A DNA stretch of 62,928 bases, filler included, from Neolecta irregularis DAH-3 (Eukaryota): the NCBI GenBank assembly GCA_001929475.1. It is 18 parts of 18 records of this genome, joined end to end, with 100 filler letters (N's around TTAATTAATTAA, not from the genome) between each part and the next. Parts side by side here need not be neighbours in the genome. Positions count along the whole stretch, not along the records: positions 1 to 4,978 come from LXFE01001171.1; positions 5,079 to 9,350 come from LXFE01001172.1; positions 9,451 to 11,335 come from LXFE01001176.1; positions 11,436 to 14,306 come from LXFE01001178.1; positions 14,407 to 15,455 come from LXFE01001180.1; positions 15,556 to 18,607 come from LXFE01001181.1; positions 18,708 to 22,148 come from LXFE01001182.1; positions 22,249 to 24,284 come from LXFE01001184.1; 10 more parts are not named here. One strand, given 5' to 3'. Below are positions 4,501-58,146 of the stretch, one piece after another (the first letter of the stretch is position 1; every line of letters begins with the position of its first letter). The notes under the pieces were generated by a model. That model did no database searches. It saw only the letters and a program-made list of their open reading frames with translations, and was not told the DNA's origin. A program made the translations under genes and the position numbers.

Positions 4501-4884
4501 TCTGTAACAAATTATATCGATAACAACGTCACTTTTAATCTTGGCTCGCCGTTCGCTGGCTAGTTCAGAGATAAATGTCAATGCCTCGACATCGCCTCCA
4601 TTGACGCGAAATATATGTGAATCAATGGATTTAGCACTGTCTAAACAGTAACGCGTTGTAAGGGTATATCCCGGATATACCCATACCAATACAGCAAGTG
4701 GCGGAGAAAGATAAAAATGTATATAAAACTATGGGCGCATATCCTAGTCTAAGCTCATACGCCTACAAGCTTAGATTAAGGAAATATAACCTGATCTTAT
4801 TGTACTCGAGCTCCAACACTTACACGCGTTGACTGAGCAAACCGAGGATCAATGGTGAAAACAATCTAGTTATTGACAATGTGG
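4501..4884 (-). pseudogene. KGD1: 2-oxoglutarate dehydrogenase E1 (KGD1) fragment interrupted by a solo LTR
   Basis: HIVNN*IVFTIDPRFAQST / RYCLDSAKSIDSHIFRVNGGDVEALTFISELA...DVVIDIICYR matches the E1 consensus [21 protein letters not shown]...HVNADDVEAV...DVVIDLVCYR. Confidence 0.85.
4657..4824 (+). mobile_element. Solo LTR (168 bp) with 5-bp target-site duplication CGCGT
   Basis: TGTAAG...CTTACA termini; CGCGT at 4652-4656 and 4825-4829; internal TATA-like sequence. Confidence 0.92.
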
Positions 4885-4978
4885 TGATTTGTCAGACATT
4901 GATGCAACCAACAAAAGTGGAACACCAGATTCCATATGCAGCTGCAGCTGCTTTTTTTGCATTAAATCTTCTATTTTC

Positions 4979-5078
4979 NNNNNNNNNNNNNNNNNNNNNN
5001 NNNNNNNNNNNNNNNNNNNNNNTTAATTAATTAANNNNNNNNNNNNNNNNNNNNNNNNNNNNNNNNNNNNNNNNNNNN
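4979..5078. other. Artificial contig linker N44-TTAATTAATTAA-N44 (also at 9351, 11336, 14307, 15456, 18608, 22149, 24285, 29244, 34991, 43100, 44748, 46926, 50688, 54314, 59163, 60479; each 100 nt)
   Basis: Identical 100-nt spacer with six-frame stop codons, repeated 17 times. Confidence 0.98.
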
Positions 5079-5167
5079 TATAAGTTGACAACAGGATACA
5101 TCATTGTTAATACAAAAATTCCCATTGTAACCAAGCAACATATAAATGCTAGAAATATTTTTCTCAG

Positions 5168-5281
5168 ACGGACTGGACCGGTCCATGGTCTGTTTAGGCG
5201 GACCAGACCAAGGCATTCAGGGGTCCAGACGGACCAGATCAGGGGTCTTGGTCGGTCTGGTCTAGTCGGTTAGGAACCCTG
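5168..5281 (-). mobile_element. hAT-like MITE end (CAGGGTTCCTAACCGAC family, GGACC/GGTCT repeats)
   Basis: Reverse complement matches 34925-34990. Confidence 0.75.
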
Positions 5282-5319
5282 CTAACAACTCTAGTTGAAT
5301 TAGAAAAATACAGAAAAAA

Positions 5320-6163
5320 TCAGTTATACCTCCACATATACCAACTGGCAAGGCTTCTCCATGGTTTCCATGGGTCTGAAATTTCTAGCATTTCCTTCTC
5401 GGAGAGATATTTCCACTTACCTTTGCCCTTGTTCTTTAATTTCGCAATGTCATGTCCTACCCATGCAGCCATGCCACGTTGGATGCCCAGATCACCAACT
5501 GGAAAGATATCAGGGCGTTGGAGAGTGAAAATAAGATACATATGCGCGCCTATATTTATCAGATGAATCCATTGCTACGGAAGAAATACTCCATTCTCCA
5601 ATTCCTCGAACAGCGACTAGCCGCTCGGTAATTTCCAGGTCGGTGCCATTTGACAAAAGCTCAGCAGATAACGTTCCATCGACAAAATGGTTTGCTAGTC
5701 CAGAAACATACTCTGCTTTTCGAAGAGACAGACCGGCTGATCTTAGGGTTGAAGTATCTTTCTCAAGTACCATTTCCGGTGTCGGGAAGACGTTTTTTCG
5801 TGCTTCGGCAGTAGAGGTTTCGCGAGTTCCTTGATCGTCCACCAGTATTGCGCCAGTATTCATCGAAGAGTCAGAACCAGATGAAAATAAGTTAACAAAT
5901 CTATTCAATATCGATCGAGCAGCTGCCCCGCTTACTTGTTGGGCAAGAATACCGCGCACAATATCGGGAAATGGTGTGATATTACGATCATACTCGGCGA
6001 ACAGTGGGCATGTATGTTTTTCGGCCAGTACCTTGAAGCGTGGGTCGACTGAGATTAAATGGGCGATTCCTTCAGAAAGAGCTGGTCCATGCACTATTGT
6101 TTCCAATGAACTAGGTATAGTAAGAAGTGGAAATTTAATTAAAGGCGCGGATGATTTTTCCAT
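5320..6163 (-). CDS. MAG1: DNA-3-methyladenine glycosylase (HhH-GPD family), one intron; the start may lie further upstream
   Basis: ILAQQVSGAAARSI, LRSAGLSLRKAEY, LVAVRGIGEWS, RPDIFPVGDLGIQRG, WKPWRSLASWYMW. Confidence 0.92.
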
Positions 6164-7843
6164 ATCTGCGATTTTCTAGACCGTCAGACTCGTAGTATAT
6201 GTGGAACATGCAGCATTCTTCGAGAAGGAAGTGGCCGCCTTGGAAGCGGATTTAAATTCATCGTGTTTTGAAATTCGACTCGAACTGAAATGTCAGAGTT
6301 TGAGGCGCTTGTATGGAATATTACGCAGATCTCGACTGTGTAAGATGTTTGGCGAACGTGTTATGTTTTGCTGTAAGTTTTTTCATGGTGGTTTGAAGTA
6401 CCGACCGTAATGGGAAGTCGGTGAATCTCTTCTCTGCACGAGTCGGTTAGACTGAAGCGAGCGACGGTATCGCACACAGGCTAGGAACTTGAATAATTCC
6501 ACCTGTCAAAAAAGCGGATCTAAATAGATATCCCATCATATTGACTCGGGTTGGACAAAGAGGTCAATTATTTGGTAACCTCTTTGTGGCGCATTCAGAA
6601 TGGAGTTTTTATAATTACAGAAATATGGCGCCGCCTTCGAATCATCGAAAATTGCCAACTGGTAAAAATAACGTCAGATAGTGGAGACCAAGCCAACGTG
6701 ACCCCGCGATGATATGTCACCCACAACTTCAACTATTTCCTAACGAATCACCATTTCACTCTACTTTGACGTTAGATTTTCCAAACGAAAATATATTTAA
6801 CTGCCAGTCCGTGCAGCTCTCAAAAACGGTCCTTATTAAAGCTTCAGATTTCTCCTACACTAAATCACATCCTCATTTCTTCATCGGAATGCCCAAGTAT
6901 CTTTGGATTACAGTCTCCCAAGATTCTGGAGACTTCAAAGCAAGAATATCCAAGTTAGGTAAAGGATATTTGTTTTATTGGATGAGGGTATGAACTGTAA
7001 CCTCTGTCGAGATTTTACCCCTCATAGATTCCATCCAATGTCACATACATGTCTACCTTTTTTCGCCTATCGAATCCCTTTGAGATCCTCAAGGCGGCAT
7101 ACGCCTTTGGGAGCGATGGAGAGTTGTCCATAGCACCTGGAGACGCCTTTGGACCCAATGAGGATACATTGAGTTCTTCTGGGGAGTCTAGTGATGATGG
7201 CAGTATCACTGGGTTCCTGCCAAAGATGGAGGAGAAGGATTATGTTGAGATCATTGAGAAGTACTGGAAGGATGGCATTACGTTGGGATAAAGCTCTATC
7301 TAGCTTAAAACATGCATCTTTTGGGCGGGTATCGTGACATAAATAGAGACTTTTATCTCTAGGGTCTCTAGGATGACTCGCAATGGGATTGTGGGAACCT
7401 CCATAGGGTAAATAAAGCTCAACTTTTCAAACATGGGTTACGGTTCACTATCGCATTGCATTGGTGACGAGACCAATCAAAAGCCTCCTTGTTACAACTG
7501 CTCAAAACGGACTCGGATTCGTTGACACACACGCCTAGAATAGACAACTACATAATGTAATAGTCAACCCAAGAGCTAGACCGGGTGAATTTGATGAGTA
7601 TTACATCTCGATACAGGTAAGGGCTTCATAATGACAATTCTCCGCTACGAATCCGAGGAGCATATTTTCATGCAAGCAGTTCTCTATCACTTTATCGGAA
7701 TATTTTTGAAAAAGAAAATCCATGTTCAAGAGTTTCGACAGAGGTCTATGTAAACCCTTGCAACATTGATTATCATGACGTGGAGAAAGCAGCGAGCGTA
7801 AACGGCCACGACACCGCCTCTGTTCCCCACCAGAAGAGTGATA

Positions 7844-9350: not shown

Positions 9351-9734
9351 NNNNNNNNNNNNNNNNNNNNNNNNNNNNNNNNNNNNNNNNNNNNTTAATT
9401 AATTAANNNNNNNNNNNNNNNNNNNNNNNNNNNNNNNNNNNNNNNNNNNNTTAGTCAAACTGCTGGAACTTTCAGTGAAAGTCCCAGAACTTACAGTGAA
9501 AATCCTACATATACACACTCTCTGCATCTCTCCGGTTTGCCAACTCGCTACCTCTTACTGCGTTTCTCGCTCGCGAGTTGCGCACCCTCTCACCTCCTTA
9601 CTCACTCACACTCCATCTTGCCTGATCGCGTTCCATCTCGCCGCTTGCCCGATCGCTCTCCCTCTGGCTGTGTGTCTTATCGAGCTCCATCTGGCCACTT
9701 GCCTAATCGCACTCACTACCTCTGGCCGCCGCTG

Positions 9735-10040
9735 CAGCTCCACTGCCAGCTCCAGTTCCATCGCCTGCGCCAGCTCCATCGCCAGCTCCATTGCCATCAC
9801 CCACTCCAGCGCCCTCACCCTTGGCTGTTCCAGCCGCATCTCCTGCTCCAGCTCCATTGCCTGCTCCAGCTACGTCGCCCGCTCCAGCTACGTCACCCAC
9901 TCTAGCTACGTCGCCCGCTCCAGCTACGTCGCCCGCTCCAGCTACGTAGCCCGCTCCAGCTATGTCGCCAGCTCCAGCTACGTCACCCGCTCCAGCTCCA
10001 TCGCCCGCTCCAGCTCCATTGCCTGCTCCAGTTCCATCGC
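9735..10040. repeat. 18-bp minisatellite (CTCCAGCTACGTCGCCCG)n, degenerate
   Basis: Tandem units visible directly. Confidence 0.85.
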
Positions 10041-11210
10041 CCCTCCTACCTCTCCCATTCCGCCCACCCCTCACGCTGCTCCCATCACTCCCGTTCCCGT
10101 TCCGCCTGTCGCTCCCCTCCCGCCTCTCCCGTTCCACCATACCAGTTGCTCCCGTTCCACCTGTCCCTCCCGCCTCTCTCGTTCTGCCTGTCCTCCCGCC
10201 GCACCCATTCCACCTGCCGCTCCCACCGCTCCTGCTGCTCCCGTCCCTCCCGTCACTCCCATTCTGCCTGTCACTCCTGTCGCTCCTGCTGCTACCGTCA
10301 CAATTCCGCCCGCCCTCCCATCACTCCCATTCTGCCTGTCCCTCCCGTTGCGCCCGTCCCTGCCGCCTCTCCCATTCCGCCCGTCCCTGCTGCCTCCCCT
10401 GTTCCACCCGTCGCTCCAGTTGCGCCTGTCCCTGCCTCCTCTCCCGCCGCTCTCTATTCTCCCTCCGCCCTTTTTCCCTCCCACCTCTCCCGTTCCGCCT
10501 TACCCTCTTGTCACTCCCGCCACTCCCGTTCTGACTGTCCTCCCATTCCACCCTTTCCTCCCGCCACTCCCATTCCGCCTGTCCCTACCGTCACTCCCAC
10601 CACTCTCGTTCCGCCTATCCTCCCGCCGCTCCCTTCTCTCATGCCCGCCGCTCCCTTCCCTCCTGTTGCTCCCATTCCGCCTATCCCTCCTGTCGCTCCC
10701 GCCTCTCCCGTTACCATTCCGCCCGCCCTCCTGCCACTCCCGTTCTGCCCCGTTCTGCCGTTCCCCTCTCTCCCTTTCCGCCCGTCGCTCCTGTTGCACC
10801 CGTCCCTGCCGCCGCTCCTGCCGCTCTCATTCCGCCTATCCTCCCGCCACTCCCTTCCCTCATGCCCGCTGCTCCCTTCCCTCCTGTCGCTCCCATTCTG
10901 CCTGTCCCTCCCGTCGCTCCCGCCACTCCTGTTACCATTCCGCCCGCCCTCCCGCCACTCCCGTTCTGCCCCGTTCTGCCGTTCCCCTCTCTTCAGTTTC
11001 ACCCGTTGCTCCAGTTGCGCCCGTCCCTGCCGCCGCTGCCACCGCTCTCATTCCGCCTATCCTCCCGCCTCTCCCTTCCCTCCCGTCGCTACCATTCCGC
11101 CTGTCCCTCCCGTCGCTCCCGTTACCATTCCGCCCGCCGCTCCAGTTCCGCCCGCCGCTCCCATTCCCCCCGTCCTACCGCCACTCCCGTTCCGCCTATC
11201 CTCCCACTGT
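10040..11210. repeat. Pyrimidine-rich array (CTCCCG/TTCCGCC) with higher-order units of about 220 bp
   Basis: TTCCGCCTATCCTCCCGCC recurs near 10609, 10831 and 11051; similar arrays at 14100-14306, 44848-44970, 46430-46925. Confidence 0.85.
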
Positions 11211-11435
11211 CGACGAATTAACTCTTGGGTACTTCGCCGAACCAGGTTATGTAAAGTTAACCAAACTTTCTGAACCTGGTATACTTTGCAGAACTCCTCA
11301 ATCCCTCAAGATAACTGATTGGCAGTCTCAGACAANNNNNNNNNNNNNNNNNNNNNNNNNNNNNNNNNNNNNNNNNNNNTTAATTAATTAANNNNNNNNN
11401 NNNNNNNNNNNNNNNNNNNNNNNNNNNNNNNNNNN

Positions 11436-13980: not shown

Positions 13981-14974
13981 CTCTAACCCTAATAATCACT
14001 TTGAGTTGGAGATGAAATTGAATTGCCTGCTGAGCAAGTTCATTAGTTGATTTCAGATTACATGTATATATAATTGAATTTATTCATCTTGATAAGTTAT
14101 TCACGCGCCTCGCCCGCCCATCTCGCCTCGCCCACCCGTCTGGCCTACCTCTCCCGTCCCGCCTGTCCCTCCCGCCTCTCCCGCCTCGCGCCCGTCTCCT
14201 CGCTCTCCCGCCCGTTCCGCCCGCCTCGCCCGCCCGCCTCTCCCATCTCCCGCCTCGCCCGCCCGTCTCGCGCGCCTGGCGCGTCTCTCCCACCTCGCGC
14301 CCCATCNNNNNNNNNNNNNNNNNNNNNNNNNNNNNNNNNNNNNNNNNNNNTTAATTAATTAANNNNNNNNNNNNNNNNNNNNNNNNNNNNNNNNNNNNNN
14401 NNNNNNCAACTACCAACATCACATTTCAAAACGTTACAGCGGCTCCCGTAAACTCTCCGGAACAATGGCAGATGTCTGGATGCCAGGACATGATGATCTT
14501 TAATTCCAAGTATGAACCTTTCCTTCGCAAGGACATTGTTGTCAACAAGCGACTCAGGCTCTAATACTGCGACCTCCTGAGATGGTTGTGCTAAAAGGTC
14601 TTAGATATATGTGTATTTTTCCATCTGATTGCATACATTAAGTAGTCGTTTTTGAAATTCATAAACATTTGATATTGTCCTCAGTTATACTGCGATGATT
14701 TGCACCACCATTGCTTAACAACAAGGACCCGGAAGCGGTGTTTCCCTCGAAAGGCCCACGCAGCACTCTGTGGCGTGCAGCGAAAGCGCGCGCCGCCTTG
14801 GACCAAGGCTGGCGATTTGCAGCACGGATGCTCGCGGCGCAACCTCGCGTGGCGTTTACATTCCTGCCAGGCGTTAAAGCCGCCCAGCGAGACGGCGAGG
14901 CAGGCCCAACACTCACGCTCGTTGGCTGTTTCCCGCCCTCGTTCCTTACCCAAGTCCGTCTTTCGCCCTGTGCA

Positions 14975-18707: not shown

Positions 18708-19643
<936 letters not shown>

Positions 19644-22030: not shown

Positions 22031-22042
22031 TAAATATTTTTA

Positions 22043-22083: not shown

Positions 22084-22148
22084 TGTAAGGATATACCCAG
22101 TCGGTATACCTTACCAATACAGTAATCAGGCGTTGGTGGAATAAGTAG
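22084..22148 (+). mobile_element. Partial LTR, same family as 35353-35544
   Basis: TGTAAGGATATACCC..TCGGTATACCTTACCAATACAGTAATCAGGCGTTGGTGGAATAAG. Confidence 0.88.
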
Positions 22149-23600: not shown

Positions 23601-24885
23601 TTCTATATTCAATTCTATGAAGTAGATATAATTGAAGTATTTCACCCCTAGATTTTTTTCAGAATCCACCAGTTATTTAGCTGCCCGACTATATGGCCCA
23701 TTGGCTTCTTGCGCTCATTCGAAGCACAATGTGTCCTTGAGACCCACCTCCTAATGCAGGCTCCCAATCAGTGACTGAATGATAAAGTCTGAATTTGTCT
23801 GTAGGATATTTTATGTAGATAGTTCATTGGATTCGAACTTTTCACGTAGTAGCGGACAATTGTGGTCTATGAGAAATATTTCCAAGTGTTCTGGCATTCA
23901 TTCATAGTTGTGGGGATTCCCGGAACCCCCACAGCCACCAGAGACGGATGACCACCGCCACCGGCAAACGAACCAAGGACATCCTCAAAGCGCGATCGAC
24001 CCCTCCATCCACAAGTAGAGCTAGGAAGCTCAATAAGGATGTTAGCCGATTCCCTATCAATGGGGGGGCATACCATTGACCCGCGATCGGGCGCGATGTC
24101 CGCAAGAGGCGCGCGGCTGCTCAAAGAGCAAGTCAATCTCGTCATTGACAAACAGAGCAGCGATATCCTCACGGCGCGATCGATCGAATACCCCGCAAGA
24201 AGAGCTAGGGAGCTCAATGGGAGATGTGCGGAACGGATGAGGCTCTGTAGAGAAGGAGCGAATAGGCACAGCGAAGCGCGCCTCNNNNNNNNNNNNNNNN
24301 NNNNNNNNNNNNNNNNNNNNNNNNNNNNTTAATTAATTAANNNNNNNNNNNNNNNNNNNNNNNNNNNNNNNNNNNNNNNNNNNNAACAGTCAAGTCTATT
24401 CAAGTCCAAACAAGCAAGTCTAAATTTTGGACTTGCTTACTTGCTTATTTATGCCCGCCGGACTTGCTTGCTTATAAGCAAGTAAGCAAGCAAGTCTGAC
24501 TTGAACGACTTACTTGTTAGCAAGTCTGACGGCGGTGGGGTGGACGATTATATTTTGAGAATTTGCGGATATACCGATATATTCTCACTTGTGACAATCC
24601 TTTGTTGATAGTTGTAATACACTTTCCAAAAGGACGATGCAGAATTTGTTTTTGGCATAGGACTTTGGACATGTCTCTTCGTCTCTGGAAATACATTTGG
24701 TTGTGGAGCACATCTAGAACTGATTGGGTTTAGGTTTCTTCCCAAAACAAATTCCGGAGTATCATCAAATGTTACTAAAGGAAGAAATGTCGCCGCTTGA
24801 AATTGTTTCGATATATGGGTAAACCGTGGGAACTGTATGTATTTGATTCGAGGATATTGCTCGATGGTCCTTACGAAACCTGGTT

Positions 24886-34990: not shown

Positions 34991-35352
34991 NNNNNNNNNN
35001 NNNNNNNNNNNNNNNNNNNNNNNNNNNNNNNNNNTTAATTAATTAANNNNNNNNNNNNNNNNNNNNNNNNNNNNNNNNNNNNNNNNNNNNAAGTCCAGAA
35101 TTGCAAGTAAAATAGCAAGTAAGTCCAAGCAAGCAAGTCCAAAGGCCTGAAATATGGAAGCAAGCAAGTCCAAAGTCCAGAATTGGACTTGCTTACTTGT
35201 TAGCAAGTCTGTTCCCACCTGCAATGGACCACCTGCGACCAGCCTCCCAGGACGCCAACCTGCCCCGGGCCAAACTGCGGTCAGCCTCCCACGATGCCAA
35301 CCTGTGATCCCGCCTGGTCACTCACAACCCGTGTTTCCGCCACAACAGTCGC

Positions 35353-35544
35353 TGTTAAGGATATACCCAATCGGTATACCTTACCAATACAGTAATCAGG
35401 CGTTGGTGGAATAAGAAGCGGAGTATATAGTTATACCTAGCCTGAGTTACTACACTTAGGCTTGGTATGTCCTGTACGGAGCTACAACACTTAGGCTAGA
35501 AATAACTCCTGGTCTTATTTGTAACTTCTGGCGTTAAGCTTACA
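35353..35544 (+). mobile_element. Solo LTR (192 bp) with near-perfect TSD GTCGC/GTCAC
   Basis: TGTTAAG...CTTACA; flanks at 35348-35352 and 35545-35549. Confidence 0.85.
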
Positions 35545-42206: not shown

Positions 42207-45167
42207 TAAACACCACTGCAGTAGCAATCCAAGGTGTCTGGCGCTGTGTGGTTGGCCATGCAATCGCTATCGATAAGCCGGCCGCTCCTATCACCTGATT
42301 AACCCTGCACTCCTAATCCCTTTAAATACCCCACGCTTCCAAGAACATTTGTAACCTCTAAACCACATTATTCCTGTAGCTGCCTTCCTAGACTATACTC
42401 GTGGTTTCAAATGATATATCCCACAACTTGGCGTGGCTAAATAGGCGTGGCATCCAGTCGTCCAATAGAACGCCTCATGATACTCCGCCTCACTTCCAAA
42501 TAGCCATCGCTATCCCAGTTTATTTATATACAAACAGATCAGTACTATCAGGTAACCGTTGCTTGTTCAGCAATTCCTTTGCCACGCTCTGCAGTATTTG
42601 CACGTTTATTCCGAGCATAGGCGCCTTATTCGGGATATCTTGTTACCTTTATGGGGTTCCTTCAAGAGTATATTCTCGAGCTAAAGAGATCGCCTGGCTT
42701 GATTTGCAACATTGTCAAGTGCAACGTTTATTGAAAAAAGGGGTGACAAGTTAATTTCCCATGAGTTTGAAACCCTTGTTTTCAATGATTACCCCGGGAT
42801 TCTACATAAATATACTAGACTAATTGAGTCACGTAAACGTTGCAACGTGAAGATTTCAGTGATTATTACAATTTCTATGATTTCTTTGTGATACCTCTTT
42901 ATGAAGCATGCAAGAAAAGATTCAGGAACTCGAGGAATACTCAAAACTTCAAATGGATTCAAAACAACCTTCTAGAACTTGAGTCATCAATAGTTTTAGC
43001 CTCACACTTCGGGTGATTGGCAAGTCTCTGGTCATGCTGTGGTATGGATTCTTTGTTTTCAACACTTCAATACTTTTAATCAACAATCAATTAACTCTAN
43101 NNNNNNNNNNNNNNNNNNNNNNNNNNNNNNNNNNNNNNNNNNNTTAATTAATTAANNNNNNNNNNNNNNNNNNNNNNNNNNNNNNNNNNNNNNNNNNNNA
43201 TTACAACAACTACAACAACTACCAAACCGCTATCGACCTTAAGCTACAACCTGCGTGTGACAAGCTGCATATGGAATCCTGTCAAAAGTCCATGGGCAGC
43301 ATGGACAGAATCACGTGATATTAGATTGTAGATTTATCGCGTCATAAAAATAGTTCTCAAACAACACAAACTTCACAAGTTTGATCAATTGATGTATCAA
43401 TTGACTCAACATAATCGTACCATCCACAGACCCACCTGGGGCACTTGTGCCAGCATGATCCTTCTCCCAAAAGAGGTACTCCTTTCCTCAACACCCGCTC
43501 AAGATATCCGTACTCTCCACCTCTACTGGCCCGCCAGGACCCACTTCTGTCTTGCCAACAATGTCCAGTACCTGCTCCTGGCCCTTGTCTTCTTCGGTGC
43601 CACCTCATCTACCTACACAGCACTCCTTGCCCTCGGCAGCCCCACACCGACTATTCTGCCTGCCCTCACCCACAAATCGCTCCAGCCTGCCTCGCCCACC
43701 CCGCTGATTCCCCCTCGCCCCGCTCCTCCACATCTACCCCGTCACATCCGCCATACTCGTCCTCTCCATTGCCACGCACCTGCACATGGGCGCTACAACA
43801 TGCTTCCTGGTTGCGGATGGCGAGCGGCGCTCGAGCTGATGTGCCTGGACTGCGCGCGCACCTGCTGCTCGCGGCTGCTGAGGTAGCACGCTATGCGGTA
43901 GGGTATCTGTCCCTGCACTCACCTGCCTGCCGCTGACTGCAGGCGCAGCACTGTGCCTAGCGGCACCGCTCATTGACCAGTTGACTCGCGGCAGCCGAGA
44001 GGCGCCATGATATTTAACGTTACATCTCCCATCATAGAAAACGCAAACGCACAGACAATATTATCATTACCGTATGTCCTTGTTCTATCAATCTTCTAAA
44101 ATCCTAGATGTGATTGATAACAAGATTAATATCACAGTCGCTGCGTTTCAAGAAATGTGTCATATGTGCTACAATTCACAACTGCAGTCTCCATCGGTAT
44201 CTTTCATCCATTCATGCTGCCTATCTTACCATCATCTCCATGATGTTTCATCTCCCGTCATCGAAAACACAAGCTCACAGACAAATATCACGACTATTCT
44301 ACACAATATCGGCAATTCTTCAAGGCAACGATTAGGCAAAAAGGTCCGGGCTAAGCCCATCACCCATTGCCAACACTGTTTATCGGCTAGGTATGTAATA
44401 CTCAGGCTAGAAACAATACAACCGAGTCTTATTCGTATCTGGGCTTCAATATTTGCACCCCACCCCACCTATCTCCTTCACAGGTGGCTCCGGCTGGCTG
44501 TGGGCCTTGCGTCACTCCCGGGTGCCATCGCGGTAAGTGGAGATGCAGTGCGTGGCGGCGTTCTGCAGGTTGTGGGCAAGCAAGGCAGACAATTGCAATA
44601 TGGAGCACGATGGGCGGTGTCAATCCAGAACACAGAGATGTTGGTGGATTACTTCTGCGTGCTGGCGCGTTTGTAACAGTCTCTCGCATTCCGTATTTCA
44701 ACCAGGAGATTCTATCGCTTTCATATCAAGGGTAGAATCCATTGCTANNNNNNNNNNNNNNNNNNNNNNNNNNNNNNNNNNNNNNNNNNNNTTAATTAAT
44801 TAANNNNNNNNNNNNNNNNNNNNNNNNNNNNNNNNNNNNNNNNNNNNCTCCCGCCTCTCCTGTTCCGTCCGCCTCTCCCATCCCGCCCGTCGCTCCCGCC
44901 TCTCCCGTTCCTCTCGTTCCTCTCGTTCCTCCCGTTCCGCCCGCCTCTCCCATCCCGCCCGTCCCTCCCAGTGCATGGCCAGGGCGAGTAGTGCATTGGC
45001 AACCACAAAGGTGACGCTGCACCAGGCTGCCACTGAAGAGTACAGCCATGGGTTTGTGGGCAGCGGGTGGTGGGCAGCCAGCGTCCACAGCAGCAGCACG
45101 CCCATTAGTATCAATTACATCAACTTCCACATCCCGTTTATAAACAAATTCATGTTACAAATAATCA

Positions 45168-46343
45168 TCAAAAAGATTCTTGCAGAATTCTTTGATAACT
45201 GCCCCACATTTGTAATGCGATTTCCTCCCGAAGTCTAACCATTTCCCTATCCTCAGTGTTATTTACGGGACCAAATCTATTTCTCATTTGATCAGGTTGT
45301 GCCTCATTCTCCCAGTCTTCAAGGTCATCCTCGTCTGAATGAATATTGATATAATTGTGGAGTGCTGTTATAGCTCGAACAATTTGTGCCTGAATATGAA
45401 ATGGATACTCCATTTGGATCTTGAGAATCGGAAACCTTTTTTTCAGCACACCAAAAATTCTTTCAACTGCATTTCGGAGTTGTGAGTGTCTTAGATTGAA
45501 TAATTCTTCCTTTGTCTCTGGCTTTTGAGAAGCCAGAGCTTGTTCCCGTAGGTGGTATCGTACACCCCGATATGGTGGTAGGAAGCCTTTTCTTGTAGGA
45601 TAACCTGCATCAACCAGATAATATTTCCCATCTGGAACAGTCAACTCTCCACCTGGGGATAATGCATGCTGCAAAACTCTGGAATCATGAGCAGAACCCT
45701 CCCAGCCTGATAAGATATAACAGAACTGCAAATTGAATGTGCATATACCAAGTACATTTTGAGAAATATCACCTTTTCTATTGCGGAAACGGCCCATCTT
45801 GTCTGTAGGTACCTTTGCTAAAATATGAGTTCCATCTGCAGCGCCAATGCAGTTTTGAAAAAAAGGATAGAATTTCGTATTGCTACTAATCTGCCATGGT
45901 ATGATATGGGGATTAGGCAGAGTAATAACTTCTGGATATAGTTGGAGAAGACCTTTGACAACTTGTGAGAAATATTTCGAAATAGTAGATCCACTGCGCT
46001 GGAATCTCTCCTGTATATCTCGATTGGAATTTGCATGGCCCACAATCATTAAGAAGATCCCGAGTTGTTCATCAACACCAATACTCTTCTGCTGCTTTAG
46101 CACTCTATTCTCTACCATCCAGTTTCTTAGCTCAATAAAGACATGTCTTTCCATCTGCAATACCTCCTTTACTCTTCTTGGATTTTGTCCTGGCTGTAGG
46201 AGCTCTGCCATGTACTTTGTTCCTGTGAATGAAGAGGTCCGACAAGGTTGATTCTTAGTAGTACTGTTGTAGTAGTAGTTGATAATATTGCTGAATTGCT
46301 CATGTTCTTGAATAAGAGATGCACAAATCTCTTCAGCATTCAT
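45168..46343 (-). mobile_element. PIF/Harbinger DDE transposase (intact 391-aa ORF)
   Basis: CIGAADGTHI, GWEGSAHDSRVL, YYLVDAGY, PYRGVRYHL, FNLRHSQLRNAVERIFGVLKKRF; HTH region ERFQRSGSTISKYF. Confidence 0.93.
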
Positions 46344-47025
46344 ATGGGCAAGGATGATAAATGTAATTGCTGGAGGAGCGGCAGGAGCCTACTGGCTGCA
46401 TACCCTCCCCCATTCACTTCAGCCTTGCGCGCCTCTCTTGCCCCTTGCCAGTCTCTCGCACCTTGGGCTCCTGCCTCGCCCATGTTTCGCACCTCGTCTT
46501 TCCTGTCCTGGCCGCCTTTCCAGTCCTGCCCGACTTTCCAGTTCCACCCAACTTTCCAGTCCTGCCTGCCTTTCCCGTCCCACCAGTCCCTCCTTCCTCT
46601 CCTTTCTCTCCCGTCCCGCCCGTATCTACTCTCCTATCCGCCCGTGTCTCCTCTGCCGTCCCCCTTCACCCGTCCCGCTCATCCCTCGCCTCGCCCCTCC
46701 CACGCATCCCTCCCGCCTCTCCCGTCCCGCTCATCCCTCCCTCCTCGCCCGTCTCGCATGTCCTGTCCCGCCTCGCCCGTCCCGCTCATCCCTCCTCCTC
46801 ACTCCTCCCACGCATCCCTTCCGCCTCGCCCGTCCCGCTCATCCCTCCCTCCTCGCCCGTCCCGCTCATTCCTCCCGCCTCACTCCTCCCACGCATCCCT
46901 TCCGCCTCGCCCGTCCCGCTCATCCNNNNNNNNNNNNNNNNNNNNNNNNNNNNNNNNNNNNNNNNNNNNTTAATTAATTAANNNNNNNNNNNNNNNNNNN
47001 NNNNNNNNNNNNNNNNNNNNNNNNN

Positions 47026-50000
47026 GAGAACCGTGACGATCAGCGAGCACAGAAGCTCCACATATCGTCACTAATCAGCTTCTATAGCGAGAAGCCGGTT
47101 ACAGCGGGGTAACAGTAGAGTTGTTAATCGACTCCGGATCATAGTCCAATTTTGTAGCAACAAGTTTTTGCGAAAAACATGCTAAAACGTTCACTAAAGT
47201 CCCATTAGCTAAGCCGACTCTACTTAAACAAGCATTGCTAGGCTCCTCAACATGGGTTACAGAAGGCATCGTCACTTCGGTGACAATTACCACTCCGCAA
47301 AAGCTAATCGGCTCTGCAATATTCAAATTGGCGCCATTAGGGACATACGATGTTATTCTCGGAACTCCTTTCCTTCACGAACACAAAGCTTGCTTAGACC
47401 AGTTCAATCGTACAGTTACTTTCGGAGACCAAGTGTCCCAAGTAACTTGTGACAATGAGAAGGAAAAAGAAAAGTTAACCACTGAGTCTAAGTATGTAAA
47501 TCTCAATAAACAAGTTTTTCTCGAGTACCCAGATGTATTTATGGCCGCCCTCCCGGATAGAAGGCCATTTATAAACATACCGAAACATCGCATTAAGCTG
47601 ATGGAGGAAAATTCGAAAATCGATGGTCGATTATTAAGGATCCCAACCAGGTATTGGCTACACATGCAGCAGTTTTTGGTGGAACACCGCAGGGCCGGAC
47701 GATTACGACCATCCTCAAGTGATAAGTCATCCGGGGTCTTTATGATTAGCAAAAAAGACCCATTAGCAATACCTAGAGTAGTTGCAGATTATCGTGCACT
47801 CAATACGATTATGATCAAAGACAGAACACCACTTCCACATCAAGAAGAAATCGTGGAGATCGCCGCTTGAGCACGAATACAGGGAAAACTAGACCTCAAC
47901 AATGCTTATTATCAGATACCTATGGAAGAAGGAGATATACCGAAAACAGCAATAAAAACTCCATTTGGCCTATATGAGTGGACTGTCATGCCTCAAGGGA
48001 TATGCAACGCTCCTGCAACATTTCAACGTTTCATGAATCATATATTAAGGGAATACCTGGGCAAATTCTGTGCTGTATATCTCGACGATATCATCATATG
48101 GTCAGATAGCGTAGATGATCACCTCCGAAATATTCGAACAATCCTTGACATATTAAAAGTAAACGGTATTGTTGCATCGAAAACGAAATCGACCCAGTTT
48201 GCCGAGGAATTACCTTTTCTTGGACGAATAATTTCGAACGATGGCATCAAAGTAGATCCATTGAAAGTCGACAAAATTGTGAAATTGGCACGTCCTCGAT
48301 CAGCGAAAGAAATTCAACGATTTGTAGGATTCGTTAACTGGATTAGTCAGTTTCTACCAGCACTGGCATCATACACAGCTCCATTAACAAAGTTAACGTG
48401 TAAAGAAATGCCCTTCCTTTGGACAGACACCCAAGAACTCGCTTTTCGAAAGATTAAGGACCTAGCTTGCAATACCCCATGGCTAACACCAATTGATTCA
48501 GAATGAGAAGAACGAATATGGGTAATATGTGATGCCAGCGAACAAGGAGTAGGATGTATTCTAGCTCAGGGGGCGGACTGGAGAACTGCTAAACCAGCAT
48601 CCTTTGAAAGCAGGCAATACACCTCAGCGGAAACGAACTACCCGATCCATGAAAAGGAAATGTTAGCGGTAATCTTCGCACTTAAAAAGTGGTGGCATCA
48701 CCTAATAGGAGTCAAGTTCACAGTCCTTACGGATCATGAACCACTTAAACATTGGCGAACTCAACCTCGCTTATCCCGTCGACAATTACGATGGCTCGAT
48801 TTGGTAAGCAAATACGATTTTACAATTTGCTATATTGAAGGAAAGGTAAATGTCGCAGCCTATGCACTTTCCCGATATTCATCAAGTCCTCTTGATGAAT
48901 GCGACTGCGATAATGATACAAGCACCTATACTTATAGTCGGGGAGATGAAGTAATAAGTACGAAGATCAGCCGATCGTCATTGAACGCTACAGTCGCCAC
49001 GAAGGATGAAACGAGTCCGGAAATAACTCACAATCTCGTCTCTATTCAGATATCGCCAGACGAAACAAAGTTGATCGTCGAGGCATATCACGATGATCCC
49101 GTCTTTGGAGCAGTAAATGCTAACCCCGAACGATATCAATGTTATACAAAGGTTAACTCTCTCCTTTATCTCGATTGTCGCCTTTGTATACCTGAAGTCG
49201 CAATGATTCGCGAGCGAATCATTCACACTTACCACAATTGTCACGGCCATTTTGGACATGATAAAACGTTTCGCTCTATCCGGAACGAGTTTTACTAGGC
49301 CGGTCTCAGCAAAGATATTCAAAGATATGTATCATCCTATATCGATTGTCAACGTCACAAATCCACCACCCAACTCCCAGCAGGCTATCTTCACTCTCTC
49401 CCGGTACCAACTGCTCGTTTTGATTCCATCGCAATGGATTTTGTGGGACCGTTGCCTCCATCTAACGGGTATAACGCTATATTAGTAATCACTGATCGCT
49501 TTACCAATGTGGTGCAGATACATCCAACCCACACGTCGGCATCAGCTTCAGCAATAGCGGATATCGTTTACCGTCAGTGGTATAGTTTATACGGTCTCCC
49601 GACGTCCATTATTTCAGATCGTGACACTCAATTTACTGGAAAATTTTGGCAAGAGATTCACACCAAAATTGGCACCAAATTGAAGATGTCAACCAGCTTC
49701 CATCCCGAAACAGATGGATCGTCCGAACGATCAAATAAGACCATGATTCAATTGCTCCGATATCACGTTAACGCTCATCACTCGATCTGGATGGGAGCGC
49801 TGCCAGAGGTAGAATTAGCAATGAATAATTCTATTTCTAGTTCAACGGGGTTTTCTCCATTTGAACTGCTTTACGGCGCTCGTCCTCGCCTGATGCCCCC
49901 ATTCATACCTATTGAGTCTCCCATCCCAGCAGCAGAAGAATGGCTAAAGAAAATTGAATTTTATTCCGAAATTGCCCGAGATAATTTAATTCACGCTCGT

Positions 50001-50687
50001 ACTCAACAGACTACTCAAGCTAACAAACATCGCCGTACTGAACCGCATTATAAAATAGGAGACCAAGTAATGTTAGACTCTTGAAATATTTGACGACAAT
50101 TAAAACAGAAGAACCGTGCTACCAAATTCTATCCCCATTACCTTGGGCCATTTCACATAAAAGAAATACATCCAAATACTTCAACTTATATCCTTGAATT
50201 ACCCGAACAACTCAAAGGAGTCCATCCAACATTCCATGCAAAATTACTTAAACGCTATACACCTAACGACAACATACAATTTCCATCAAGAAAATTACCA
50301 CGTCCAGGACCAGTCATTCCAGCAACAGACCGATATGAAGTGGAAAAGATTATTGACCATAGAACGAAATGGAATAAAGATGAGTATTTGATAAAATGGT
50401 TAGGATGGCCAGATTCTGACAATGAATGGCTAAAAGAAGATGACATTGACAGATTACTAATTACCGACTTCCATAACTCTCTTCAAAAAGAAGAGGAGGG
50501 AGGAGTGTAAGCATATAAGCTTATATATGCTTACTACATTTCTTTACCTTTGTCCTACATGGTGTTACGTTGTACAACGTTGTGTGACGTTGGTGTCACA
50601 TGTCGCGACGTTTGTGTGACATTGCACAGCACATGTTCATGAGGGACCTTCCTTTATTATATATAGCTGATGTGGCACCATACCTAA
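47026..50687 (+). mobile_element. Ty3/gypsy chromovirus, decayed pol (PR-RT-RH-IN-chromo), PPT and partial 3' LTR from 50506
   Basis: LIDSGS protease, MPQGICNAP..YLDD RT, CDAS..HEKEMLA RNase H, H..H..C zinc finger, DFVGPLP..SDRD..ERSN integrase, YEVEKIIDH..YLIKWLGW chromodomain; several in-frame stops; PPT AAAAGAAGAGGAGGGAGGAG. Confidence 0.96.
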
Positions 50688-54245: not shown

Positions 54246-54313
54246 TGTAAGATTGTACCCTTCAGGTACACCTTACCAATACGGCAAGAGGCGTGGAATC
54301 ATATTGCGGCCTT
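54246..54313 (+). mobile_element. Partial LTR preceded by a purine-rich tract
   Basis: GGGGAAGGCTGGT-TGTAAG..CCTTACCAATAC, as in the other LTRs. Confidence 0.75.
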
Positions 54314-54618
54314 NNNNNNNNNNNNNNNNNNNNNNNNNNNNNNNNNNNNNNNNNNNNTTAATTAATTAANNNNNNNNNNNNNNNNNNNNNNNNNNNNNNN
54401 NNNNNNNNNNNNNATTTTACATTTGAATATTGCAATGAATGAGGTTATTGCATTAATAAAAAAATAAAAAAAGCAATCTTGGACCTAGGAACACAAAATG
54501 TATGCTTCACTCGGAGAAATAAAGAAAATAAAGAGAACCCATGACCCACAACCTTGATCAAGATCCGGGTACTGATATATATAAACTCTTGTTTCTGCGC
54601 TATTGATCTCAAATATCG

Positions 54619-55271
54619 CTAAGATAGTAGGGGCGACTGCACAATCTCACTTTTCCGTAACATGTCTTTGAACATGTCTCTACGCAGGATCTTCATTGCT
54701 TCATCATAAGTGACCTACAAAATAAACTTATAACTTCGAGTAGAGGTACCCATCGACGGTTTCGTTTACCCATTTCGGGATATTCATCCTTGACTTCATG
54801 AACTTCTACTTGAAAATATATAAAATGCGAACTCGAATCCTTGAATTCACCTAGACGCTTGGTAATTTTACCAATAATACCCGCTATCAAAATATCAGTA
54901 ACTCATAAAAAGTAAAGAACAGCACCTTCTTCCCACCCTTCCCTCAGAGCAGCTTCCTCGTCACTTTCATCGGTTTCCCAACCTCCCTAGGATCAATACG
55001 AAACCACGAAGGAGGTATTAAATACTTTGGGTAGAACCCAACGACCCCTATCCCTTGAGCTACTCACAATTAAAACCATTTGTCCTTCTTGTGCACCATC
55101 CGGAATTTTCACGCCAGGTGACCTTGTATTGATGGAGTTTAAGCCAATACACACAGAGACATAACGGTTTCCATCCGGTGTGTAATGCTGCTTATCGCGG
55201 GTTTGTCTGGCTTGCATTGTATGATGGGGTGGTGCCTTAGCAGGCGAGGTCAAATTTGAACTGTTGGACAT
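54619..55271 (-). CDS. DDP1: Diphosphoinositol polyphosphate Nudix hydrolase Ddp1/Aps1 (spliced)
   Basis: MQARQTRDKQHY, WVLPKGGWETDE..AALREGWEEAG Nudix box, YPEMGKRNRRW. Confidence 0.9.
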
Positions 55272-56230
55272 TTTTGAGGCGGGTTGTCACCTGCGTTCTT
55301 CCTTTCCTTTGGTTGGTACTACCGGGACGTGGTTGTCTAGGAATTGATTAGCGATTGAATATGCCGATATTAAAAGCGAAAGGGATTGTTCCTCCGAGAA
55401 TCAAATAAGCTGGATGTTGGAGCACGGACGATTTGGAGGTTAGTCTTGCGGCAGAAAAAACAATCTGTATGAGTGTCAGGACAACCTTTCCACCGTATCA
55501 TTTTAAGTAGCCATTTCTTCGCAGGGATAATGAGATTCGAGTGGCGGGGATACCGGCAAACAATTGGAGGTTGTAGATCTGGTTAGCATTATTATAGTCA
55601 TAGGCACATGATCATGTTATCCTCATTATTACGGGGGCGATGACAGGTCGCAATAAACTATCTTAATCACAGGACTACCAAAAGATATATCTTCTCGCTC
55701 GAAATATCCCTCGGAATTAAAGTTTTTCTGTGCATTCCTTGCAGATATCTCCATTTTGTCCCCTGAGAGTGTTTCTTTGTGAGGCCGAGGTATTAAACGG
55801 AAATATGAAGCGTTACGCTTAGGACTGTTAGGAATGGCGGGCTTATACAGATCGCCAAACAAAAGCGTCCCACGATTTAACAACCTTTCCCAAGAAGAAA
55901 TTCATGTATATCATCATGTCCTATCATATCTTCTAACAGGAAGCTCTTCAGATTATTTGGAGTATCTTTTTCTTCTTTAGGTCCCTGGTTAATTTATATC
56001 CTAGGGCAAATTAGCTTTGTCCTTGAACTCAACTTCATCTCTCTATTCAACCATCCAAATCAAGCTTATCACTGATGGCATACTGGCCCACAGTGAATTA
56101 AAACAACATAAGTCTTAGGCTCTTAGCCTGAGAGAATATTTCATCAAGGAACCAACCAAATAGTTTCATCACCGCGTCTGGTGCAAGTCATCTCTATTCC
56201 TACGGGAATCAGCTCTATATTCAAAGCCAT

Positions 56231-56986
56231 TTGAATTTCCAGAGATCGAAGATGAGAACTGCATTTTCATACATTCGAGATTCAAATTTATCCAAACCTG
56301 AGAAATCTATGAAATCTATTTCCAATGAAATACTTACTTTGAGCAAAGAAGTGAAATATAGAGAATCAAATAGCATTCAACTTGTTACAAGCTCTGGAAA
56401 GAATCTGCCAAGTACACTCAAAGATGAAATGCTGATACCGTGTACCCCGTTCCAACATTTTGTGGTTAATGATCACTCCTTATATCCCAACAAGCAGTAT
56501 GCATCCAGGGACCATGTCAACTCGAAGCCTCTTTTGACTGGAGCTATAGCACCACCAAAGCCTGTTGGTCTACATAAAGACATCATCCCTCATGGTACCT
56601 CAAAACTTGGGCTAAAGGTGGAATTGCCACCTCAACATGACTGCAAACCAAAAAGTTATGATGTTATCAATTCCGCACAGCACATAGTCCTCTCTACTTC
56701 ATCCATGCGATTTCCACCAAACTTTCAATCGGTAAGTACACGAACTCAACGAAGAAAGCAGAAGCACTCAAAACGCAAAAAAGCCAAGAAAACCAAGCTT
56801 TCATCATCATTTGAAAAGATTCGACTACCGTCTATTGATGGTTTGATATACGAAGTACAACACAATATGCGAGCAGGATATTTATATGGCGTTTTTGAAC
56901 GAGCTAGGGAAACAAACGTCAATATAGAACATGTAATTGCGAGATATTCGGAATATCTGCACGACTGGGTCATCAATCGAGCATGA
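56231..56986 (+). CDS. Hypothetical protein with a basic NLS-like tract; true start uncertain
   Basis: 251-codon ORF with RRKQKHSKRKKAKK; no recognisable domain. Confidence 0.45.
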   Translation: MNFQRSKMRTAFSYIRDSNLSKPEKSMKSISNEILTLSKEVKYRESNSIQLVTSSGKNLPSTLKDEMLIPCTPFQHFVVNDHSLYPNKQYASRDHVNSKPLLTGAIAPPKPVGLHKDIIPHGTSKLGLKVELPPQHDCKPKSYDVINSAQHIVLSTSSMRFPPNFQSVSTRTQRRKQKHSKRKKAKKTKLSSSFEKIRLPSIDGLIYEVQHNMRAGYLYGVFERARETNVNIEHVIARYSEYLHDWVINRA

Positions 56987-57118
56987 GGAATGGCTTTTTG
57001 AGTTTCACTGTCTAGTGAACAGCTTTTCAATGATGCGGGAGACAGATTTGCTGAGTAAAATACATAATTTATAAACCAGGTATTCCATTTTAGATAGCGA
57101 CAATAAGACTATATTCAT

Positions 57119-57678
57119 TTATGCTGATTCGCTCAGCTTAAATGACAACGAAACACTATTAACACAATGTCTTTCATCAGTGGCCTTGGCCTCTGGAAAC
57201 CCTTCCCCTTTGAAAACATGTCCAAGATGCCCACCACAATTAGCGCAAGTAATCTCTGTTCTGAAAAAATGTCAATACTCATCTCTGGAATAAATCAATA
57301 CCTTGTCATGCCTAAACTTATATCCTCATGCCTATTAACCTTCCCAGGAATGGCATCAAAAAAGGCTATGCCATCAATATCACGGCTTCAAGAAACAGTA
57401 CCAGGCCACCCACAACCCGAATCAAACTTGGTTGTGCTTTTATAAAGAGGCTCATGACATCCAACACATTGATAAATGCCTTTTTCGTGGAATTTGCTGT
57501 ATATTCCTGAGTCAGCCGGTTCCGTGCCTTTCTCTCTGAGGATACGGAACTGTTCAGGTGAGAGAACAGCTCGCCATTCATCGTTTGTTCTGGTAACCAT
57601 TGCGTATCGAAGACTGGATATAGGCGGCGATGTTCGTGGAAATCTGAAGAGTGGAGACAGGTTGAAATGTCGCTTCAT
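57119..57678 (-). CDS. MXR2: Peptide methionine-R-sulfoxide reductase MsrB (2 introns) with a mitochondrial-type presequence
   Basis: [49 protein letters not shown]. Confidence 0.95.
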
Positions 57679-57908
57679 CCAGCGATAGATTCTTGGATAT
57701 TTGATTTAATTGCGTCACCTCTGCTTAATCATCTGCAATGCCCTCCACAATTGGATAAGTAGATGAGTTTAACCAGCTAAATCGTATCTGCTACATCTAC
57801 AATATGCAGAGTAATCTTGTAGAAATCGACCGGCAAATCAAGGCCTTCAGATTCTGCAATGAAATTCTGGGTTCGCGCAACGAATAAGAGAACTACTGTT
57901 AGTGAGCT

Positions 57909-58146
57909 TGTAAGGTATACGGTTTCGTATACCTCGCACGCATGACATGGAAAAGGGGTATACATATTTGAATACCTTAAACGCAGGACAAAGATCAAGC
58001 AAGGTTATCTCGCAAGAACATTGCAATATTTTAAGGAGTATGTATAGAATATAAGGGAAGCGGATAGGAACTATCTAGCTAAGATTCTCATATCTTAAGC
58101 TAGAAATATATCCTAGTCTTATTCGTACCGAGGTCCCACACTTACA
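57909..58146 (+). mobile_element. Solo LTR-like element (238 bp), no TSD visible
   Basis: TGTAAG...CTTACA termini and a 5' hairpin. Confidence 0.7.

Follow-up and report, generated by a model that had tools for sequence, protein, structure and literature searches.

To our knowledge, LTR retrotransposons are primed either by a tRNA or by the 5' end of their own RNA, and what their LTR ends have in common is limited to TG...CA plus a short att repeat. Structures near the two strand starts are already published. The U5-IR, described for Rous sarcoma virus and Tf1 (as cited in PMC5445492 and PMC4600332), is an RNA stem-loop at the LTR end that lies directly before the minus-strand primer and overlaps the att site. 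An inverted repeat precisely placed at the PPT/3' LTR junction has been reported for Sirevirus and copia elements and proposed as an RNase H guide (Bousios 2010, PMC2829016; Benachenhou 2013, PMC3601003); as these sources describe it, its left arm precedes the PPT, which itself sits in the loop, and its right arm begins ~18-28 nt into the LTR. A 2013 survey called for a systematic hairpin search at the PPT. Fungal GalEa copia elements, which have no PBS, carry a sequence-conserved Conserved Hairpin Site at the LTR junction, behind the 5' LTR (PMC5445492).

For minus-strand priming, comparable cases have been described in the Skipper chromoviruses of dictyostelids and in fungal elements of Cryptococcus. 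In Skipper a polypyrimidine stretch, often C-led, replaces the PBS; no explanation was given for its primer, and the feature was reported as not known from any other organism (Spaller 2016, PMC5006619). Novel priming was proposed for Cryptococcus Tcn2-5 (Goodwin and Poulter 2001, via PMC7175516), and that proposal may already have been poly(A) priming.

Here we describe a hairpin at the U3 tip of chromovirus LTRs and a putative oligo(T) primer site behind 5' LTRs. Like the U5-IR as outlined in the sources above, the hairpin is a stem-loop at an LTR end, directly before a primer and overlapping the att site, but it lies in U3, at the plus-strand start, and has no G·U bias. It shares with the Sirevirus repeat its exact position at the junction. 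Unlike that repeat, it has both arms within U3 and is retained in solo LTRs; the layout with a left arm upstream of the PPT and the PPT in the loop was not found. It also differs from the GalEa site in its place, in its variable sequence and in its element type. In the literature searched, we found no description of an LTR-internal stem at the U3 tip.

LTRs and tip hairpins in the window

The window, the whole 62,928-nucleotide stretch of Neolecta irregularis DNA that was analysed, is made of small contigs joined by N linkers, and for this reason three of the six LTRs in which tip hairpins had been predicted (22084, 50506 and 54246) are cut short. The features are as follows.

4657..4824, + strand: solo LTR, subfamily B, with an exact 5-bp target duplication
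4658-4686, + strand: tip hairpin of the subfamily B solo LTR, perfect core 4662-4682 (9 bp)
4796..4803, + strand: putative subfamily B R-end word, whose complement stands behind T8 downstream of subfamily B 5' LTRs
22084..22148, + strand: 5' part of a subfamily A LTR, ended by the contig; tip hairpin 22085-22114
23909..24001, + strand: LTR of subfamily R, the seventh in the window; its end is the end of the BLAST match
35353..35544, + strand: solo LTR, subfamily A; hairpin to 35384; target duplication with one mismatch
35514..35522, + strand: putative subfamily A R-end word, exceeding that of B by one base
47871..50507, + strand: broken chromovirus pol, subfamily C, with in-frame stops; RT, RNase H, integrase, SH3 and chromodomain
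50485..50505, + strand: polypurine tract directly against the 3' LTR, no spacer
50506..50687, + strand: 3' LTR, subfamily C, ended by the contig; perfect 11-bp tip hairpin 50507-50534
54246..54313, + strand: 5' part of a subfamily E LTR, ended by the contig; hairpin 54247-54276, with a compensatory pair relative to subfamily A
57909..58146, + strand: LTR, subfamily D; perfect 9-bp core 57913-57934; putative R-end word 58118-58126

The pol at 47871-50507 has the chromovirus domain order, RT-RNase H-integrase with a C-terminal chromodomain (Pfam), and the Ty3/gypsy chromovirus marks are present as TG...CA LTRs, a 5-bp target duplication and a PPT ahead of the 3' LTR; no target duplication was found at the subfamily D LTR. 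Named matches to the window's RT are mostly basidiomycete proteins, 43-49% identical, a likeness to the fungal Tcn2-5 elements as far as these are described in the source cited above.

All six predicted hairpins (6/6) were found in place. The tip 40-mers each fall in the most stable 1.3-6.2% of 6048 window 40-mers on folding, and 3 of the 16 perfect inverted repeats of at least 8 bp in the window are LTR tips. The original prediction had every stem begin right after the terminal T; all six tips do fold, but the perfect stem begins at nt 6 at 4657 and at nt 5 at 57909, outside which the outer stem is imperfect, and the stems at 22084, 35353 and 54246 are bulged. The 4657 hairpin is a shortened version of a longer B stem, its inner part gone and its pairing retained, and the 35353 tip has one additional base. 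The seventh LTR, absent from the original prediction, has a G-rich tip unlike the other six, which pairs with a C-rich arm (hairpin 23909-23933).

The double change at 54246 relative to 22084 is indeed compensatory. The six LTRs had further been counted as differing families, and their tip sequences do vary, but those at 4657, 22084, 35353 and 54246 have a common word after the stem and 57909 has the same LTR 3' end as these four. The window by itself therefore over-counts independence.

Tip stems across genome G000 and metagenome chromoviruses

Covariation and position were both upheld outside the window in reverse-complement and offset comparisons. A perfect stem of at least 6 bp beginning in the first six bases is present in 15 of the 24 LTR subfamilies of genome G000 (1.03 expected; these subfamilies are mutually related and their representatives were picked after inspection) and in 10 of 36 metagenome chromoviruses (1.27 expected), with the signal at its maximum at offset 0. 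The 5' arm starts from nt 1-6 of U3, and the stem is closed within some 20-42 nt. An exact match to the reverse complement of nt 2-6 was found 3' of the tip in 13/24 own subfamilies, against 5% for non-cognate tips, and in 7/36 outside elements against 5%; the 3' arm thus follows the tip sequence, and does so over several distinct tip words. Tip stems are kept across deep branches of an RT-IN tree of unnamed loci, and the published SM-Tcn1 has a 9-bp stem starting at nt 2 (supplement, by eye). Subfamilies O and P have nt 6 changed from G to C and its partner from C to G with the U5 end unaltered, so the U5 att end is not the source from which the 3' arm was copied.

Two generalizations of the original prediction fail. 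The hairpin is not on every LTR: lineage N/N2 amplified without a tip stem, and a stem of at least 5 bp is absent from half of the 36 outside elements. Nor is it confined to one chromovirus clade or one priming type. Among the 36 metagenome elements, a 5-bp stem occurs in 13 of 29 outside the oligo(T) clade described below and in 5 of 7 inside, and a tie to oligo(T) priming is ruled out as a rule by the 5'-self-priming L301 and SM-Tcn1, which have the hairpin. Hand counts of 5-bp stems, ~7/12 without a PPT spacer and ~11/24 with one, likewise speak against a link to the spacer. A 12-bp hairpin in L288 arose from a wrong start; the start taken from the LTR pair, which was used, gives 3 bp. The 36 outside tips yielded no significant folding-energy z-scores (mean -0.42, p=0.15), and downstream windows scored no differently; a PPT-plus-tip pattern search gave no excess (45 vs 53 in the control), and no integrase relative was found in viral contigs.

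A putative oligo(T) primer site that matches the LTR's own putative R end

At 22 5' LTR ends, from 11 subfamilies, the LTR is followed by T6-8 and then by the complement of its own putative poly(A) site. Metagenome relatives have the same arrangement of T6-8 plus R-end complement, and leader word and R-end word covary: the subfamily A leader word behind T8 is one base longer than that of B, as is its R-end word. The putative poly(A) site of subfamily B would lie directly after 4803. Two inserted copies have an inverted R behind the T run. At the 22 oligo(T) junctions no TGG lies within a few bases of the LTR; 5 copies of lineage N, which are putatively tRNA-primed, do have one near the 5' LTR. 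When a Tf1-type adjacent self-primer was sought (at least 10 nt of LTR complement, 0-5 nt after the 5' LTR), the longest match was at most 4 nt in 7/7 oligo(T) elements, with the whole LTR used for 5 of the 7, and both controls, L274 and L301, gave a 10-nt match. No 5' LTRs were found for subfamilies G, H, R, S, T, U and V.

Several candidates were set aside. The T runs of L228 and L237 are not real junctions; the 'unclear' primer site of SM-Tcn1 shows a Tf1-type match by eye and is not of the oligo(T) type; 18 viral-contig matches to the junction pattern appeared to be chance AT-rich DNA; and Tj1, for which 5' self-priming is described (PMC4600332), is no precedent for poly(A) priming.

These sequence patterns point to a minus strand primed by the element's own polyadenylated 3' end and not by a tRNA, a reading to which we give a probability of roughly 60%. 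The R end plus 7-8 A of the RNA 3' end would pair with T6-8 plus leader, the tail presumably being trimmed by RNase H, by analogy with Tf1. A poly(A) 3' end as minus-strand primer would be a third route for starting reverse transcription. The elements resemble Tf1/sushi in gypsy domain order, chromodomain, TG...CA ends, 5-bp target duplication and lack of a tRNA site, and their LTR-leader duplex resembles the 'pretzel'; they differ in having T6-8, not a 10-nt LTR complement, at the LTR end and in placing the matching LTR word near the putative RNA 3' end. As in Skipper, a polypyrimidine stretch stands in the place of the PBS, here T6-8 with or without a leading C; the leading C occurs in subfamilies C and P and in L393, L225, L232 and L236, and the likeness is one of description. 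This suggests poly(A)-end priming as a candidate answer for the pyrimidine-rich primer site of Dictyostelium Skipper.

A Tf1-type 5' self-primer with the T run as a copied spacer, or any cellular poly(A) end, might serve instead, in which case the LTR-leader pairing would be a cis stem. The same duplex is possible with a 5' copy of R, and snap-back can yield inverted-R copies with no need for RNA primer read-through. Subfamily C has C, not A, after the match, and its U5 would exceed 100 nt; the leading C made Spaller et al. sceptical of a simple poly(A) primer. Against these alternatives stands the position of the match. By our reading, in most subfamilies its end is 19-23 nt short of the LTR end, with an A-rich word ~15-20 nt above it and a TATA-like word some 60-90 nt above it, a spacing that fits an RNA 3' end over a start site. 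In addition, a T homopolymer in all subfamilies requires an A primer, and no A run longer than 3 occurs in the whole LTRs tested. We thus consider such alternative primers somewhat unlikely.

Possible roles of the tip hairpin

The hairpin probably acts in DNA, because the RNA strand shows no G·U excess (31 G·T vs 34 A·C), a balance that fits DNA or both strands; folding slightly favours the minus strand in own subfamilies (17 vs 6, p=0.04 uncorrected), the count being blurred by a stem walk that runs past the real stems. Tentatively, and at odds somewhat short of even, we read it from its sequence and placement as a selected chromovirus LTR cis-element at the PPT/U3 junction that takes part in plus-strand priming, most likely in DNA. 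After an RNase H nick at the junction, the strand ahead of the primer, at first an RNA remnant and in later rounds an earlier plus-strand strong-stop DNA, would fold on itself and peel off the template. Peeling would expose the PPT 3' end for initiation, or for re-initiation by strand displacement, would suppress priming just downstream of the PPT, and would keep the LTR end exact. Ty3 is described as starting again from the PPT and displacing its first plus strand (PMC5371799), and in HIV-1 suppression of priming just downstream of the PPT is described as important for integration (PMC2665208). The tip hairpin would then be a plus-strand counterpart to the U5-IR, whose stem precedes the minus-strand primer, and PPT reuse could replace a dead-end plus strand that ran into the poly(A) primer. 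A template hairpin directly before a primer could also slow initiation instead of aiding it, and the tip stems at U5 ends fit end recognition equally well.

The stems might instead act on finished cDNA ends, with fold-back or fraying at both att sites aiding integrase loading or processing. The att word itself lies inside the 5' arm, there is no strand bias, and tip stems are enriched at both ends, those of at least 5 bp occurring at 12/25 U5 ends (4.3 expected). The U3 signal is far above that at U5, where stems of at least 6 bp are found in 4/25 compared with 15/24. Moreover, two hairpins are less stable than a duplex end, the form present in solved intasomes; an integrase role seems unlikely. 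The hairpin could also have no function, if a nascent plus strand folds back and copies its own start, giving recurrent inverted tips. Inverted LTR pieces demonstrate RT fold-back in these elements, the 5' arm starts at or after nt 1 in the inspected folds (made without the PPT), and stems are free to vary in length, some of them perfect in a given subfamily yet broken in the sister one (H vs H2). Yet bulges and mismatches are fixed within subfamilies with flanking pairing kept on both sides, tip stems persist over deep branches, and shared variants favour loops over stems (3 at 132 stem sites vs 5 at 43 loop/bulge sites; p=0.02, weak and noisy), which leaves such a by-product quite unlikely.

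We put at similarly low odds a 3' UTR stem-loop in RNA that pauses RT, shields the region of the PPT or has a part in packaging or dimerization. G·U pairs are kept in all copies of S and in the outside element L268 with two near-duplicates, and the Sirevirus structure near the PPT was proposed, in the account cited above (PMC2829016), as an RNase H guide. Against this stand the lack of a G·U excess overall, fixed A·C oppositions in subfamilies H and R, and the better-folding minus strand. Finally, since U3 serves as the promoter and dimeric factors typically bind dyads, the stem could be a dyad-symmetric site for a transcription factor or insulator protein; the sequence, however, is replaced wholesale with pairing retained, and arm spacing ranges from 3 to >15 nt, making a protein site the least probable of these readings and highly unlikely.

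That a chromovirus clade, spanning the fungal genome, metagenomes and perhaps Skipper, combines a polyadenylated 3'-end primer with a self-peeling U3-tip hairpin, both true and both unpublished, we judge possible, with the odds a little against it. The primer-site result carries more weight than the hairpin result, and the poly(A)-junction model predicts an exact cleavage site for each subfamily. A covarying, tip-anchored stem across chromoviruses would give the plus-strand start a structural rule, and it offers an added feature for detecting solo LTRs. A few copies also have additional C-rich matches upstream of the PPT.

Tip hairpins in the window

The source genome (14.2 Mb in 4,542 contigs) is represented in the window by short contigs with N linkers between them, and its material includes a gene of the ICE2 family (Pfam), whose range is fungal. 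All six LTR-start stems of the original prediction are present, at 4657, 22084, 35353, 50506, 54246 and 57909. LTR tips account for 3 of the 16 perfect inverted repeats of at least 8 bp in the window, and the six tip 40-mers rank in the most stable 1.3–6.2% of 6,048 windows. The copy at 4657-4824 is a genuine LTR, flanked by an exact 5-bp target duplication, and the LTR at 50506 sits 3′ of a polypurine tract (PPT) and a broken RT-RNase H-integrase-chromodomain pol. A further, seventh LTR, at 23909, differs from the six in its tip, and its arm differs to match. The original six are for the most part related subfamilies, so independence has to come from outside them. A second, longer stem-loop lies in the presumed R of subfamilies B, A and D (4740-4790, 35435-35500 and 58070-58105) and is frequently tandemly duplicated in other copies.

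Other repeats in the window are as follows.

45168-46388, minus strand: 406-aa stop-to-stop open frame of a DDE transposase (Pfam DDE_Tnp_4), with C-rich tandem repeats on either side
24461-24496, 35091-35209, 58150-58250 and 60751-60830: dispersed MITE-like repeat, short tandem units with inverted arms
9400-11390, 14100-14300, 44840-44980 and 46540-46930: long, degenerate C-rich tandem arrays with periods of 9, 18 and 27 nt

The LTR at 57909 lies within or adjoins one of the MITE-like repeats, and several C-rich arrays are located at contig ends.

Tip stems across the genome

We gathered LTR starts without reference to the stem by two routes: the first PPT-TG downstream of integrase C-termini (58 hits, all retrieved; many contigs stop before the LTR), and a 3′-end motif with 166 matches against 10 in the control, sampled as 30 loci and 40 further stretches among 100 matches listed. 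Starts were fixed by target duplication where feasible (37 of 120 ends, including a few spurious ones). One real copy then represented each of 24 subfamilies; copies were picked after the sequences had been seen, so the choice was not blind. Perfect stems beginning at nt 1–6 reached at least 5 bp in 18 of the 24 subfamilies (3.97 expected from shuffles), at least 6 bp in 15 (1.03 expected) and at least 7 bp in 11 (0.29 expected). Along the LTR, 5-bp stems are most numerous at offset 0 (18), followed by offset 6 (13) and other offsets (1–8). A hairpin at every LTR, as first proposed, does not hold: lineage N/N2 is without a tip stem. In lineage N (loci L322, L323, L328, L329 and L332), a TGG-type primer site follows a 1–2-nt spacer, and a 2-nt spacer follows the PPT.

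At 2 of 141 LTR 3′ ends (L045 and L055), the sequence beyond is an LTR of another subfamily that lacks nt 1, as though insertion had taken place one base into that tip; in L004, a different tip hairpin carries an insertion in its loop. GT often begins the target site (23 of 141 cases). C-rich words 5′ of the PPT could pair with the PPT itself in L009, L014 and L034.

Covariation of tip and arm

Tip and arm covary, in agreement with the original prediction. The exact reverse complement of nt 2–6 is found downstream in 13 of 24 subfamilies versus 18 of 352 non-cognate pairings (which are non-independent), and four different tip words take part. Subfamilies O and P have C in place of G at nt 6 and G in place of C at its partner, with the U5 end unaltered; the arm therefore follows the U3 tip, not the att site. 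Stem length is variable: subfamily B has an inner extension, which the copy at 4657 has lost yet remains paired. Shared variants are less frequent at stem sites (3 of 132) than at loop and bulge sites (5 of 43; p=0.02), but the alignment has some mis-anchored rows and the difference between stem and downstream sites is not significant (p=0.10).

Tip stems in other chromoviruses

An integrase alignment yielded 80 metagenome loci, with the 3′ LTR start callable in 40 (PPT-TG or LTR pairing); removal of four near-duplicates left 36, the folds of many having been viewed before the list was fixed. Stems of 5 bp are present in 18 of the 36 (4.9 expected; at most 9 at other offsets) and of 6 bp in 10 (1.27 expected; at most 4 at other offsets). 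The cognate complement of nt 2–6 occurs in 7 of 36 elements; among non-cognate pairings the count is 61 of 1,160 (p=0.003). Folding-energy z-scores of these tips, however, are not significant. In SM-Tcn1, a published Selaginella element, a 9-bp stem starting at nt 2 is visible by eye, although its arm belongs to a U3 tandem repeat. In an integrase tree of partial sequences, nine hairpin subfamilies of the genome group with L225, L232, L236 and L255 (support 0.98), and lineage N falls outside this group. The U3-tip hairpin is thus real, covarying and not confined to this genome; the tip stem is wide among chromoviruses, strongest here and not universal.

The hairpin is a new form of primer-adjacent LTR stem of putative function. 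Neither an LTR-internal U3-tip stem nor minus-strand priming by an element’s own polyadenylated 3′ end was found described in full-text searches of largely open-access literature, among it PMC4600332, PMC10085805, PMC6317226, PMC2864245, PMC5445492, PMC7175516, PMC11381356, PMC5911963 and bioRxiv 2021.07.27.453949. PMC3601003 calls for a systematic search for hairpins at the PPT. The Sirevirus repeat differs in that its left arm lies upstream of the PPT (PMC2829016).

A putative role in plus-strand priming

The stem’s position, covariation and absence from one lineage are direct observations. We assign a probability of roughly 0.4 to a function at the PPT/U3 nick in plus-strand priming. The strand ahead of the primer would fold as a stem and lift off the template, which would serve both repeated priming with displacement and suppression of downstream priming. 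The Ty3 PPT primes repeatedly, each new plus strand displacing the previous one (PMC5371799), and HIV-1 requires suppression of priming just downstream of the PPT (PMC2665208).

Among the alternatives, handling of ends by integrase is the least improbable. U5 ends too carry tip stems, although weaker (at least 5 bp in 12 of 25 versus 4.3 expected). An RNA element is more doubtful still. An RNA helix under selection normally shows an excess of G·U; stem oppositions are 11 G·T versus 15 A·C in the 25 tips of this genome, and 31 versus 34 in all 44 tips, where outside tips are the 19 with a stem only and the stem walk overshoots. Lift-off of a stem ahead of the plus-strand primer would operate without strand bias. 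A by-product of fold-back copying is as improbable as an RNA element, and a dyad for a protein is the least probable.

A putative oligo(T) primer site after 5′ LTRs

A T run is seen directly 3′ of several LTR ends. A first junction pattern gave 15 matches against 5 in the control, 9 of the 15 following LTR ends; a wider pattern gave 61 overlapping matches against 35, obtained as 25 loci and 20 further stretches. By hand count, LTR-T6-8 junctions number at least 22, in at least 11 subfamilies. Long frames downstream of the T run in L319, L320 and L225 are read as gag by position, with a CCHC motif in L319 and L320; L103 has a related, shorter frame. TGG is found at none of 22 junctions, a 10-nt LTR complement adjoins the LTR end in none of 7 oligo(T) elements tested (present in controls L274 and L301), and the longest A run in the oligo(T)-element LTRs tested is at most 3.

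The 5–7 bases after the T run (the leader) are complementary to a word within the LTR. For most subfamilies this word stops 19–23 nt short of the LTR end; the distance is 36–44 nt in two and >100 nt in C. A second helix lies beyond a small internal loop. Word and complement vary jointly: both gain one base in A and E relative to B, and both are unrelated to these in C and in the metagenome elements L225 and L232. For LTRs that have a C in this word at the R end (the putative poly(A)-site end of R), the leader was predicted before wider-pattern junctions were seen, and two subfamily Q copies (L376 and L396) match it; the wider-pattern sequences obtained include no junctions of subfamilies G or H. 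One mismatch or wobble occurs in the match of L100, L372 and L392. Mean LTR-leader duplex energy is −15.5 kcal/mol for cognate versus −9.6 kcal/mol for non-cognate pairs (0 of 20,000 permutations), although just 6 of 14 rows have the cognate pair as their best, and the pair matrix is confounded by fragment length. In 8 of 14 cases, no more than 3 of 100 shuffled leaders reach the energy of the real one; this does not hold for A, E, I, X100, X103 or L236.

Two inserted copies carry inverted R directly after the T run. In L392 (G000:C3111, ~2760-3090, minus strand), a subfamily D LTR and T7 precede 64 nt of that LTR’s R end in inverted form (60/64 identical); in L371 (G000:C496, ~1355-1625), R-U5 of subfamily P and C-T6 precede inverted R and U3 to the exact U3 tip, with an additional inverted R piece upstream. 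The arms have diverged, which argues against assembly artefact. The inserted copy in L392 arose in reverse transcription, by fold-back or read-through. Both imply a plus strand that would end in the T run and R-end complement, through primer read-through or snap-back alike.

We predict that the minus strand is probably primed at the poly(A) junction, the R end and its A’s pairing with T6-8 and the leader. Self-priming from the 5′ end across a T spacer, or priming by another poly(A) RNA, is a less probable source of these junctions. PMC5006619 describes for Skipper a C-led polypyrimidine site with unexplained priming, not seen in other organisms; a term search of its supplement returned no such sequences. 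The oligo(T) site and covarying R-end match make an open priming question testable by one experiment. Goodwin and Poulter reportedly proposed novel priming for Tcn2-5 in 2001, which may anticipate part of the primer-site finding. The L225 element is full-length and recent: its two 122-bp LTRs are identical, and it has both a target duplication and a primer site of the form C-T8. In the tandem elements of L232 a C-T-run-type primer site directly follows the LTR.
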